Shown here: positions 27,993 through 33,700 of the stretch, piece after piece
Layout of the letters: every line of letters starts with the position of its first letter
Numbering within the stretch: position 1 is the stretch's first letter
Origin: an uncultured Thermoleophilia bacterium
GTDB lineage: Bacteria > Actinomycetota > Thermoleophilia > UBA2241
Reading direction: 5' to 3'
NCBI GenBank assembly: GCA_963715985.1
Contig: CAVQSP010000011.1
Coordinates: forward strand, 224,001-288,000
Length of the DNA: 64,000 bases
The notes under the pieces: model-generated
The model's input: the letters and a program-made list of their open reading frames with translations, nothing else
The model's database searches: none
What the model was told of the DNA's origin: nothing
Translations under genes and position numbers: made by a program

Positions 27993-28826
27993 ATGGCTCG
28001 GCGTGACGGAAACAACGGCAACGGCGGGGCGGCGGAGCTCAAGGGCTCCGCCCTCTATGAGGTGCTCAAAGGCATCGACTTCGAGCGCCGCGAACTGGTG
28101 GACAAGAGCCGGGGGGTGGGGCTCTTCGACCTCGTGCGCGGCAAGGACGGCGACTACCGCTGCTACTCCTGCACCTTGTGCGAGAAGGCCTGCCCCGTCG
28201 ATTGCATCGAGATCGACTACTGCCCCGAGTTCGACGAGGTCGTGTTCGATCTGGCGGCGGAGCGCGCCGCGGCTCTGGCGACGCTGCCCGGCGAGAGCTG
28301 CGGCGCCGGCGCGGCCTGCGTCATGGGCGAGAAGCCGGCCGGCTTCATGCCCGAGCTGGACATGAAGCTCTTCGACCCGGTCATCGCCGGCATCCGCGAT
28401 GGCTCGGGCCTGGTGCAGGCGTTGCATGCCACCCAGGAGGCCTTCGGCTGGCTGCCGCGCGTGGCCCTCGAGGACATCGCCACCGAGATGAACGTCCCGT
28501 TCTCGCGCGTGTTCGGCGTGGCCAGCTTCTACAGCCAGTTCCGGCTCACGCCGGTGGGCAAGCACGTCATCGACGTGTGCATGGGCACCGCCTGCCACGT
28601 GGCGGGTGCCCCGCTCGTGGTGGAGGCCTTCAGCCAGGAGCTCGAGGTCCCCGTGGGCGGCACCACTGCCGACGGCCTGTTCACGCTGCAGACGGTGAAC
28701 TGTGTGGGCGCCTGCGCCCTCGCGCCGGTGGTGCGCATCGGCGCCGACGAGACCTTCGGGCGCATGGGCCCCAACGAGGCCCGCAAGCTGGTGCGCAAGC
28801 TGCGTAAGGCGGAGGTGCCGGCATGA
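27993..28826 (+). CDS. NuoE/HydC-like [2Fe-2S] subunit with extra N-terminal 4Fe-4S motif
   Basis: VASFYSQF, CMGTACHVAG, VNCVGACALAP; N-terminal CYSCTLCEKACP. Confidence 0.88.
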   Translation: MARRDGNNGNGGAAELKGSALYEVLKGIDFERRELVDKSRGVGLFDLVRGKDGDYRCYSCTLCEKACPVDCIEIDYCPEFDEVVFDLAAERAAALATLPGESCGAGAACVMGEKPAGFMPELDMKLFDPVIAGIRDGSGLVQALHATQEAFGWLPRVALEDIATEMNVPFSRVFGVASFYSQFRLTPVGKHVIDVCMGTACHVAGAPLVVEAFSQELEVPVGGTTADGLFTLQTVNCVGACALAPVVRIGADETFGRMGPNEARKLVRKLRKAEVPA

Positions 28827-30736: not shown

Positions 30737-33700
30737 GTACCCGGACAAGGACAGCCGTCAAGATCACGGTCAACGGCCGCGAGCTGGCCGCCCGCGAGGG
30801 CGAGACCGTCCTCGACGTGGCGCGGCGCGAGGACATCGACATCCCCGCCCTGTGTCACCAGGAGGGCGTGGCCGCCTGGGGCGCCTGCCGCCTCTGTCTC
30901 GTCGAGGTCGAGGGCACCGACAAGCTTCAGGCCGCCTGCACCACGTGGGTCGCCGACGGCATGAAGGTGGCCACCGACACGCCACGCGTACGCGCCCGGC
31001 GGCAGAGCTACCTCAAGATGTACCTCTCCGACCACAACTCCTACTGTGAGGCGCCGTGCTCGCACGCGTGCCCCACACACATCGACATCCCCGCCTACAT
31101 GGCGGCGCTCGCCTCCGGCGACGCCACCGGTGCAGCTTCCATCGTGCGCGAGGAGCTGCCGTTCCCCGGCATCCTCGGGCGCGTGTGCCCGCGCTACTGC
31201 GAGCCGGTGTGCCGGCGCGGCGACGTGGACGAGCCCATCGCCATCTGCGCCCTGCACCGCGCCGCCGCCGACCACAGCGAGACGCGCCTCATCCCCGGCA
31301 TGCCGAGCGGCAAGCGCGTGGCGGTGGTGGGCGCAGGCCCGGCCGGCCTGGCCGCGGCCTGGTTCCTCACGGAGCGCGGCCACGCGGTCACCATCTACGA
31401 CGCCAACCCGGAGCCGGGCGGCTCTCTGCGCTACAGCATCCCGGAGTTCCGCCTGCCGGCCAGGGTCGTCGAGAAGGAGCTGTCCCCGCTGTGGGAGGCG
31501 GGCGTGCGCTTCGTCGGCGAGGCCGAACTCGGCTATGAGGTGGACACCGACGGCCTGCTGGACGCCGGCTTCCACGCCGTGGTGCTGGGCATGGGCCGCT
31601 GGGAAGAGCCCAAGCACGTGCTCCCGGGCGACGACGCGGCCCACAAGGGACTGGACCTGCTCAAGCGCGTGCGCGACGGCCGCGCCGTCAAGTTCACGCA
31701 GAAGGTGGCCGTGATCGGCGACGGCCTCACGGCCCTCGACGTGGCCCGCACGGCGCGCCGCAAGGGCGCCAAAGAGGTCGTGGTCATCTCGCCGAACCAG
31801 GGTGAGGACATCCCGGCCGGCGCCCGTGACCTGGCGGCGGCTCTCGACGAGGGCGTCAAGTTCGAGTTCGGGGCCCTGGCCAAGCGCGTCAAGGCCAAGG
31901 CCGGCAAGGCCCAGGGCGTGGAGTGCGTGCGCGTGGTCAGCGAACGCGGGCGCACCAGGGAGGTGCGCGGCTCGCGCTTCGACGTGGCCGCCACCACCGT
32001 GGTGATGGCCACCGGCTACTCGCCACGCCTCGGGGACAGCGCCGACTACATCTCCGTCTCGCAGGCCCGCCTGGAGGCGCACCCGGCCACCGGCCGCACG
32101 CCCGACGAGGGCGTCTTCGCGGCCGGCGACGCGGTGGCGCGCTCGCAGTCGGTCATCCACGCGGTGGCCAGCGGCAAGCGCACGGCGCTGTGCATCGACG
32201 CGTGGCTGCGCGGCGAGGACCTCGAGGAGCTGGAGGCCCGGCTCACGCTCTACTCCAGCCTCCCCTACCTCGAGCAGCTCAAGGCCGAGGACGGGCTCGG
32301 CGAGCTCGAACTGCGCCTCGCCGAGCGTGACCCGGTGTGGCTCAAGATGGGCGCGACCGCCGACCCCGGGGCCCGCGCCACCATGCCGCGTGTGGGCCGC
32401 GAGAAGCGCCTCACGGCCACCGACATCGAGGTCGAGAAGGGCTACAGCCTCGCGGCCGCGCGGGCCGAGGCCATGCGCTGCCTGCAGTGCGAGTGCCCGA
32501 GCCTGGGCACCTGCGAGCTGCAGCGCCTCGGCGTGGACTACGGCATCACCGACAACGACCTCGTCGTGAAGGGCTCGCTGGTGCGCCAGGTCGAGCCCCA
32601 GTACGAGCACCCGTTCATCCGCCGCGACATGAGCCGCTGCATCGCCTGCGGGCGCTGCGTGCGCGTGTGCCGCGACGTGGCCGGCCCGGCCTGCTACGAC
32701 TTCACCGGGCGCGGCTTCATGATGAACGTGGACACACCCTACGGCGAAGCCCTGCAGCTGGCCGACTGCATCTCCTGCGGTCGCTGCGTCACCACCTGCC
32801 CCACGGGGGCGCTCACGTTCAACGAGCGTGAGCTCTCATCGTTCCACGTCGACGAGAGCCGCTGCATCATGTGCCGTGAGTGCGTGGGCGCGTGCCCCGT
32901 GGATGCCCTCAAGGAGACCAATCACTTCGAGGACGCCCGCCAGAAGTGGCTCGAGCTCGTCGCGCAGGGCAGCAACCTCGCCGGCGGCCACCGCATGTGC
33001 GCCGGCTGCGGTGCGCCCATCGTTGTGCGCCAGGTGCTCATGGGCACCGACGACCCGGTGGTGGTGAGCGCCGCCACCGGCTGCCTCGAGGTGAGTACGA
33101 CGATCTACCCGTACACCTCGTGGAAGGGCAGCTACATCCACACCGCCTTCGAGAACGCCGCCGCCACGCTCTCCGGCGTCGAGACCGCGTTCCGCGCCCT
33201 CAAGAAGAAGGGCCTCATGAAGGAGAACGTCAAGTTCATCGCCTTCGGCGGCGACGGCGGCACCTATGATATCGGCCTGCAGAGCCTCTCCGGCGCCATG
33301 GAGCGCGGTCACGACATGGTGTACGTCTGCTACGACAACGAGGCCTACATGAACACCGGCTTCCAGCGCTCGGGGGCCACGCCGGAGGGCGCCTGGACCA
33401 CCACCACCCCGGTGGGCAAGGACAGCGCCGGCAAACTGCAGAACCGCAAGAACCTCACCGACATCATGATCGCCCACGGCATCCCCTACGTGGCCCAGGC
33501 CTCGCCGCACGACCCGCGCGACCTGGTACGCAAGGCGGCGAAGGCACTGGCCACACCCGGCCCCGCCTTCCTCAACATCCTCGCGCCGTGCCCGCGCGGC
33601 TGGCGCTCGGACGGAGCTGAGACCATCGAGCTGGCGCGGGAGGCCGTCAACGCCTGCTACTGGCCGTTGTTCGAGGCCGTTGAAGGCGAGCTCCGCCTCA

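Follow-up and report, generated by a model that had tools for sequence, protein, structure and literature searches.

In the present study, we analysed an operon in a 64,000-nucleotide stretch of DNA (hereafter, the window) from an uncultured Thermoleophilia bacterium, where the genes of a four-subunit 2-oxoacid oxidoreductase (PorABCD) are clustered with bfuABC genes. Two subunits of this operon, the HydC-like BfuC and a BfuA-PorB fusion protein, each carry one orphan [4Fe-4S] motif. Comparison with known sequences indicates that the two orphans are very probably the halves of a single 2x[4Fe-4S] domain derived from NuoI of complex I, which would be re-formed across BfuC and the fusion. Related loci are either Por-type, like the window, or Nuo-type, where the same two halves stand inside a complex I (nuo) operon. 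The parts concerned are the following (FAD, flavin adenine dinucleotide; TPP, thiamine pyrophosphate).

27993 to 28826, + strand: BfuC/HydC/NuoE-like subunit with a NuoI half at its N-terminus (Pfam 2Fe-2S_thioredx, residues 138-270)
28083 to 28217, + strand: NuoI repeat-1 half, about residues 31-75 of BfuC, with the orphan motif 28161-28196
28221 to 28319, + strand: BfuC linker with Cys77, Cys103 and Cys109, found only in Por-type proteins and dispensable
30733 to 32823, + strand: BfuA part of the fusion, with 2Fe-2S (A1), Nfn/GltD-like FAD domain with A6/A7, His-ligated A3, and A2/A4
Motifs at 32638 and 32767, + strand: A2/A4 pair of the fusion
32821 to 32970, + strand: NuoI repeat-2 half with the orphan motif 32863-32898, plus the linker to PorB
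32971 to 33912, + strand: PorB (beta, TPP-binding) domain of the fusion (Pfam TPP_enzyme_C; PDB 9bt4_C over residues 747-1029, E 8e-81)

Two orphan motifs match consecutive repeats of NuoI

The first motif (CYSCTLCEKACP, starting at 28161) spans C57 to P68 of the 277-residue BfuC/HydC-like open reading frame (27993-28826), and the second (CIMCRECVGACP, starting at 32863) spans C711 to P722 of the 1059-residue fusion (30733-33912), about 25 residues ahead of its PorB domain. The original prediction, a lone motif at the N-terminus of the HydC-like subunit (28161-28196) and an odd third motif of the fusion before PorB (32863-32898), had placed both correctly. The window holds eight CxxCxxCxxxC motifs, all within the operon (two in PorD, two in BfuB, three in the fusion, and one in BfuC). 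Six form ordinary pairs; the two orphans lie 4.7 kb apart, one per subunit. The stricter pattern CxxCxxCxxxCP occurred at a mean of 0.0 per shuffle in 200 codon shuffles of the 8.3-kb region. In an alignment, motifs 1 and 2 of the fusion correspond to the two-cluster domain of Caldicellulosiruptor NfnA (PDB 9bov), which leaves the third as the extra one; on the same grounds we rejected the possibility, raised by Pfam dicluster models through adjacency, that A4 pairs with the orphan. All four cysteines of each orphan motif were invariant in 120 of 120 BfuC relatives and in 120 of 120 fusion relatives, these sets being the best 120 of 310 and the best 120 of 139 matches, respectively, found with these very regions as query and hence partly selected. 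The named relatives of both proteins belong to Thermoleophilia and other Actinomycetota.

The clostridial-type ferredoxin fold contains two such motifs, with the fourth cysteine swapped between the clusters. In the PDB, the BfuC N-terminus comes closest to E. coli NuoI, in its first repeat (E 3e-10), and the BfuC half covers positions 41-79 of the 180 in the NF004536 NuoI profile (45-87 of the NuoI hidden Markov model, HMM). For the fusion orphan, the matches are polyferredoxins and NuoI/TYKY, the latter in its second repeat, and it covers positions 69-115 of the 121 in the NuoI profile TIGR01971. With repeat-specific HMMs built from 89 two-motif proteins, the BfuC half scored 60.8 bits as repeat 1 against 25.4 bits, and the fusion half 45.1 bits as repeat 2 against 22.1 bits as repeat 1, the top repeat-2 score among the eight motifs of the window. 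The BfuC score is biased because the 89 proteins were found using the BfuC half, whereas the assignment of the fusion half is free of search bias. When aligned to intact NuoI, the two halves are consecutive and do not overlap, and only both subunits together give a pair of CxxCxxCxxxCP repeats that keep the register of the NuoI profile.

Both halves occur together, and replace nuoI in complex I operons

We scanned GTDB genomes with NuoE-domain patterns and took the best 80 of at least 595 stretches, ranked by a half-bearing query; the second half played no part in this selection. The 80 loci comprised 38 Por-type, 21 Nuo-type, 19 without the N-terminal half, and 2 in no class. Of the loci with a BfuC half, 43 extend to the end of BfuA (31 Por-type and 12 Nuo-type, window excluded), and all 43 have the second half too, so the co-occurrence for which the original prediction had proposed a check holds wherever it could be tested. 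Among the others, 16 carry the BfuC half but are cut off, 15 have neither the half nor an adjacent BfuA, and 6 were uncallable. None of the 80 loci was discordant, so that independent occurrence of the motifs, which the original prediction had named as evidence against itself, was not observed.

A search with the BfuC N-terminus against 1.84 billion representative sequences (122 matches) returned a protein, P0324, with a full N-terminal NuoI half fused to a NuoE-like domain, and its family has 187 matches. Locus L002 reads nuoA-B-C-D-H, (NuoI-N+BfuC), BfuB, (Nfn-BfuA+NuoI-C), nuoK-L-M-N; on TIGR01971, its BfuC accounts for positions 3-66 and its BfuA for positions 69-114. In the Nuo-type loci the halves thus replace nuoI between nuoH and nuoJ-N (nuoJ was identified by eye in L014). 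Canonical second-half NuoI sequence ends BfuA in all 12 complete Nuo-type loci, and within none of these 12 loci is an intact NuoI encoded on either strand. Complex I needs the two clusters of NuoI for electrons to reach NuoB. Therefore, reconstitution of NuoI from its halves is the simplest reading of these loci.

In L002 (6215-21082) and the 11 other complete Nuo-type loci, the complex I operon has no separate nuoI and its Bfu input is Nfn-type. Their input module combines an NADPH-type FAD domain, an NADH-type BfuB and a ferredoxin domain; the enzyme is potentially a four-substrate, proton-pumping one. Nuo-type and Por-type cassettes also occur in one genome (L003/L031/L053, L005/L038, L010/L055, L011/L026, L009/L029, L042/L066/L067, and L017/L078), where halves of the two systems could in principle cross-pair. 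A third paralogue (L024, L028, L030 and 12 similar loci) has BfuC and BfuB with neither a NuoI half nor a downstream BfuA, and resembles Type 4 Bfu.

In a quick, unrooted BfuB tree of 54 of the 80 loci and the window, the Por-type proteins form one side of a single branch (support 100), and Nuo-type rows lie on both sides of the midpoint. This fits, without proving, a derivation of Por-type from Nuo-type, although exchange of paralogues could blur the picture; as the tree is unrooted, we infer the direction of evolution rather than read it from the branches. The split would have arisen in a nuo operon with a BfuC-BfuB-Nfn/BfuA cassette inside nuoI. On joining PorABCD, the cassette of the window would have lost the N-terminal lead of NuoI and exchanged its tail for PorB. 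Three Nuo-type loci (L017, L018, and L067) carry a Por-type BfuB signature, and may be either evolutionary intermediates or cases of paralogue exchange.

One-chain relatives and other ways to complete the clusters

In five proteins from the same search (P0256, P0270, P0281, P0319, and P0327), one chain holds a first half like that of BfuC, then a short linker and a second half like the orphan, and the chain continues in frame into PorB in P0281, P0319, and P0327; four of the five appear frameshifted further along. Residues 21-72 of P0281 are 46% identical to BfuC 23-74, and the remainder aligns to the fusion, starting at the orphan and running on through PorB. The joined domains are only 55-84% identical to each other, and hence the five cannot represent one assembly error. 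That they arose independently, as PadI-like or delta-beta fusions unrelated to the split, is in our view quite unlikely. The PadI profile does have about 150 positions ahead of the PorB match, an extension that is probably a ferredoxin domain, and the PorB parts of the five share just 58-65% identity with Por-type PorB. However, their first half has the Por-type lead sequence, unlike canonical NuoI, and they score just 193 against the PadI model with its cutoff of 700. Even if true, an independent origin would leave the split domain intact.

The homodimeric alternative, a symmetric oligomer where BfuC halves pair with one another, or fusion halves do so across a Por dimer axis, is very improbable. 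It has precedents in the designed semidoxins and one natural one, which are homodimers around two clusters (PMC12648291), and Bfu enzymes do form ABC dimers or tetramers (PMC11829005). But the two halves correspond to different repeats (1 and 2) of a single domain and not to one repeat twice, the five one-chain proteins carry both, and homodimers would leave the constant joint retention of the halves unexplained.

Local completion, with one cluster per subunit and the fourth ligand drawn from C71, C77, C103 or C109 in BfuC and from C654 or another cysteine in the fusion, is scarcely credible: C77 (117 of 120), C103 and C109 (both 120 of 120) are indeed kept in Por-type relatives, as is C654 in all of 120 fusions, but 120 Nuo-type BfuC proteins (best 120 of 187) show no extra conserved cysteine column, the extra BfuC cysteines are absent from 21 of 21 Nuo-type loci, C103 and C109 are missing in 5 of 38 Por-type loci that all retain the fusion orphan, C71 has a counterpart cysteine in E. 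coli NuoI that is not one of the eight motif ligands, and C654, judging from the NfnA alignment, sits at a like position after the A2 motif. Cys77, Cys103 and Cys109 are therefore not general fourth ligands, and local completion, another outcome that would have undone the original prediction, does not hold generally. The insert bearing them is possibly a metal site or a disulfide.

Structure prediction added some detail. With AlphaFold2, the joined domain of P0327 reached a predicted local distance difference test score (pLDDT) of 83-97 per 10-residue block (65 in the linker), and the N-terminal half of BfuC alone stayed below 50 and gave no usable model. When the P0327 model was used for fold searches, PorB dominated the results, which were not informative on the ferredoxin domain. 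Complex prediction of the BfuC half with the fusion half scored 0.45 against 0.00 for the best control. The individual runs gave 0.48, 0.21, and 0.45, with at least 52% of contacts in common and a partner pLDDT of at least 44. Solved pairs reach the mark applied in 116 of 157 cases and mismatched pairs in 2 of 215, but passing scores of 0.60 or lower comprise only 18 of the 157 solved pairs and both passing mismatches. The model of the HydC N-terminus with the fusion part that the original prediction had called for thus lends weak support, 0.45 against 0.00.

Several points weigh against a re-formed NuoI domain. The 43 loci are related, with Por-type BfuB on one side of one branch, so their perfect co-occurrence may reflect one origin retained in both settings. 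Loci that lack the BfuC half are a weak control because BfuA is lacking there too; furthermore, an orphan BfuA half without a BfuC half could escape a scan that was ranked by a half-bearing query, none having started from the BfuA half. The count of intact nuoI covers the 12 loci themselves. As for the models, the P0327 alignment held intact NuoI rows, which favours folding, and the low pLDDT of the lone BfuC half may stem from a shallow alignment. The complex prediction comes without a contact map or Cys-Cys geometry, and one of its three runs gave 0.21; its pass can come from likeness to solved NuoI, and it adds little beyond the comparative evidence. Finally, a re-formed domain does not account for the high conservation of Cys77, Cys103 and Cys109 in Por-type proteins. 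Even so, the match to NuoI repeats 1 and 2, the co-occurrence in 43 of 43 loci, the replacement of nuoI in nuo operons and the one-chain forms together support the proposal that the orphan motifs complement each other in trans, and designed half-ferredoxins do bind two clusters in this way (PMC12648291).

Cofactor sites and nucleotide use

The best PDB matches of BfuB are the bifurcating HydB proteins 7t2r_B and 8a6t_B, and HydB/NfnB matches extend over residues 29-622. Cys35/40/72/76, Cys483/486/489/529 and two C-terminal motifs make up the B5, B1, and B3/B4 set. The B3/B4 pair occurs in 34 of 38 Por-type loci, the misses being three cut-off contigs and one frameshifted locus. BfuC carries the C1 [2Fe-2S] thioredoxin domain (Cys196/201/237/241; Pfam PF01257). 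His553, Cys466, Cys559 and Cys564 of BfuB align with the B2 site of 7t2r_B; a B2 site with His and Cys is described in section 6 of PMC9304861.

Residues 9-701 of the fusion find their best PDB match in 9bov_A (E 9.5e-133), and its clusters are named here after PMC11829005. The A3 ligands His101, Cys105, Cys588, and Cys594 are conserved, and an Nfn/GltD-like FAD domain with A6/A7 is inserted. His175 (31255-31257) takes the position of the fourth A7 ligand, a Lys in solved NfnA, and is His in 109 of 109 rows with a residue there. Three residues ahead of it, Cys172 is invariant, and Por-type and Nuo-type proteins share both residues. The first dinucleotide motif of the FAD domain is conserved, but the second Rossmann NADP(H) signature is lacking in the window, with GDGLTA for GGG..A and no YRR, the motif that binds the 2'-phosphate. 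Position 330 of the fusion is Asp in 76 of 120 relatives; GGGFTA and YRR are kept in 6 of 8 Nuo-type rows.

The CGES motif of BfuB has Ser in 37 of 37 matched Por-type loci and Glu in 15 of 18 Nuo-type ones. The NADP-using HydB of T. kivui shares this Ser, and Arg335 of the window corresponds to its Arg340, a residue in contact with NADP. With Ser and Arg335 in BfuB and the NADPH signatures of the Nfn domain lost, NADP+ at the site of flavin mononucleotide (FMN) in BfuB is a reasonable prediction. Residues 312-337 of BfuB (29756-29833) show the NADP-type signature of T. kivui HydB, and Por-type proteins have a GKHIRT loop instead of PPFP. The 2-oxoacid substrate is probably pyruvate: for all four Por subunits the pyruvate models score best, yet under their own cutoffs, and Pad and Vor models score lower.

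A proposed electron route through A4

The homology of the halves, their co-occurrence, the operon position and the one-chain forms are established; contact, cluster binding, route, substrates and evolutionary direction we infer. On assembly, C57, C60 and C63 of BfuC with C721 of the fusion would bind one cluster, and C711, C714 and C717 of the fusion with C67 of BfuC the other, given the cysteine swap of the known fold. In pyruvate:ferredoxin oxidoreductase, electrons pass from TPP to the PorB cluster and on to PorD. By analogy, the split pair would act as a tethered ferredoxin, with electrons flowing from the 2-oxoacid at TPP through the PorB cluster, the PorD pair, the split pair, A4, A2, and A1 to B1/FMN. 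The acceptor at FMN would be NAD(P)+, probably NADP+; should bifurcation be retained, C1 and B3/B4 would also carry electrons on to soluble ferredoxin.

In the fusion, 32 residues separate the A4 motif of BfuA from the second half. In Caldicellulosiruptor NfnA, the A4-A5 branch is a dead end (PMC11829005), and electrons of the third substrate have been proposed to enter BfuBC via A4 in Type 1 and Type 2 Bfu enzymes (PMC9304861). The N-terminal helical bundle of HydC lies near the HydB/HydA interface, with C1 on the C-terminal domain (PMC10021017), and ferredoxin binds beside B3/B4 in T. sibiricus NfnABC (PMC12018979). The tether next to A4, the placement of the HydC N-terminus and the retention of B3/B4 beside the ferredoxin site lead us to an A4 route with ferredoxin as the low-potential partner, and we lean towards the split pair feeding A4, the third-substrate branch.

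The original prediction differed on both counts, proposing a wire into the low-potential HydC/HydB branch that removes the need for soluble ferredoxin. A delivery of Por electrons to the C1/B3/B4 branch, for instance with pyruvate and NADH yielding NADPH, seems unlikely to us. Pyruvate (-500 mV) is a low-potential donor, for which the purpose of bifurcation has been called unclear (PMC9304861); the window has no stand-alone ferredoxin motif pair, and the fusion carries an Nfn-like FAD domain. On the other hand, the second half is tethered beside A4, where third-substrate electrons are proposed to enter in Type 1 and Type 2 Bfu (PMC9304861), and the first half sits on the N-terminal helical domain of BfuC and not on the domain carrying C1. 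Besides, the same pair takes the place of NuoI in Nuo-type loci, and the Nfn domain of Por-type proteins has eroded NADPH-binding signatures. Nor was the claim about soluble ferredoxin supported, since BfuB keeps the ferredoxin-docking B3/B4 in the 34 Por-type loci mentioned above. Any bypass of soluble ferredoxin is probably confined to the step from Por to Bfu, with ferredoxin itself remaining a co-substrate.

Comparison with known systems

Por-Bfu, Nuo-Bfu, and Nfn-Bfu enzymes are already described or predicted in PMC9304861. The predicted Por-Bfu of Dehalococcoides and syntrophic Proteobacteria (Schut et al. 2022, PMC9304861) likewise has four Por subunits clustered with BfuABC and a proposed entry at A4. 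There, Por is separate and BfuA is of Type 2 without A3 and A5, whereas in the window BfuA is Nfn-type with A3, fused to PorB, and joined by the split NuoI domain. In the predicted Nuo-Bfu, a 14-subunit complex I with BfuABC input (PMC9304861), the bfu genes lie amid the nuo operon, as in L002 and others. The sister loci differ by their Nfn-type BfuA and by a nuoI divided between BfuC and BfuA, and the window operon by having no membrane arm.

Nfn-Bfu/Stn enzymes (NfnABC of Caldicellulosiruptor, 9bov; Sporomusa, 8oh5; and Thermococcus, 9n5u) are the best PDB matches of fusion residues 9-701 and share its A1-A2-A3-A4-A6-A7 and FAD layout. Where their A4-A5 branch ends dead in an Fdh-like remnant (PMC11829005), the fusion has a NuoI half and PorB. 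The fusion also has His175 for the A7-ligating Lys, and in Por-type proteins the GGGxTA/YRR signatures for NADPH are eroded. NuoI/TYKY/Nqo9 of complex I is one chain, whereas each half here matches one repeat; its N-terminal lead and C-terminal tail are missing from the window halves but kept in the Nuo-type halves. Semidoxins (PMC12648291) likewise complete two clusters in trans from two single-motif chains, but they are homodimers of about 30 residues and mostly designed, whereas the BfuC/fusion pair is a predicted heterodimer of natural halves fused to two large subunits. The main text and one supplementary file of PMC9304861 make no mention of 'Actinobacteria' or 'NuoI'. In the literature searched, we found no account of a NuoI split over two subunits or of these operons, though closed-access papers and Supplementary Table 1 of PMC9304861 could bear on this.

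Operon layout and surroundings

The gene order is porC-porD-porA-bfuC (hydC-like)-bfuB (hydB-like)-fusion (25781-33912), right behind dnaX and recR. The remaining parts of the operon are as follows.

25781 to 26389, + strand: PorC, gamma subunit of the four-subunit 2-oxoacid oxidoreductase (Pfam POR; TIGR02175 above cutoff)
26386 to 26769, + strand: PorD (delta), with a complete 2x[4Fe-4S] pair, motifs at 26605 and 26695 (TIGR02179 above cutoff)
26773 to 27975, + strand: PorA (alpha; Pfam POR_N and PFOR_II; best NCBIfam match PorA_Arch, 488 bits, below the cutoff of 550)
28823 to 30736, + strand: BfuB/HydB, with N-terminal 2Fe-2S (B5), FMN/NAD(P) core, B1, B2-site His/Cys and C-terminal B3/B4 (from Pfam, PDB and the cysteine list)

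Along the fusion, Pfam and PDB matches follow in the order 2Fe-2S, Nfn/GltD-like FAD, His-ligated cluster, two-cluster pair, third motif, and PorB. The PorB domain scores 360 bits against NF008819, below the cutoff of 405, and its tail has conserved Cys1039 and Cys1056. Upstream, dnaX, a gene we take to be YbaB-like, and recR (22708-25784) lead straight into porC, the start of which overlaps the recR stop; among the 80 loci, recR turned up at 11 and dnaX at 12, every one Por-type. Short imperfect repeats, noted by eye, lie between the fusion stop and a ligase gene (34040-34185). On the - strand (34190-40215), this phenylacetate-CoA ligase-like gene (below the PaaK cutoff) and a cluster resembling a branched-chain amino acid ABC transporter converge on the operon; among the 80 loci, this neighbourhood is not kept beside Por-type loci. 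A link to phenylacetate metabolism was rejected: although paaK adjoins the operon of the window, it occurs in only 2 of the 80 loci, both Nuo-type, and liv genes in none.

What the split domain would mean

The usual view of clostridial-type 2x[4Fe-4S] domains is that each is a single chain, the exceptions being tiny homodimeric half-ferredoxins. In a pair of unlike, natural halves, each cluster would bridge two subunits, tying cofactor formation to assembly of the complex. We are evenly divided on the fuller scenario, where the pair would be a natural heterodimeric 2x[4Fe-4S] plug: a NuoI formed only when BfuC and BfuA meet, re-using the dead A4 branch as the Nfn domain occupies the A3 face, in a cassette that later moved onto a pyruvate oxidoreductase, with nucleotide use shifting from the Nfn FAD domain to an NADP-type BfuB. 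If true, the window would encode a self-wired pyruvate:NADP+/ferredoxin bifurcating enzyme, the two linking clusters of which form only on correct assembly. The split pair also offers a direct test of the function of the A4 branch of BfuA.

For uncultured Thermoleophilia and other actinobacteria, this would mean two undescribed enzyme layouts, a complex I with Nfn-Bfu input and no nuoI gene and an Nfn-Bfu enzyme fused to PorB. Annotation would miss nuoI in the Nuo-type operons because it is split between BfuC and BfuA. Redox modules would thus be re-plugged, the same connector serving complex I or pyruvate oxidoreductase depending on the operon, sometimes within one genome.

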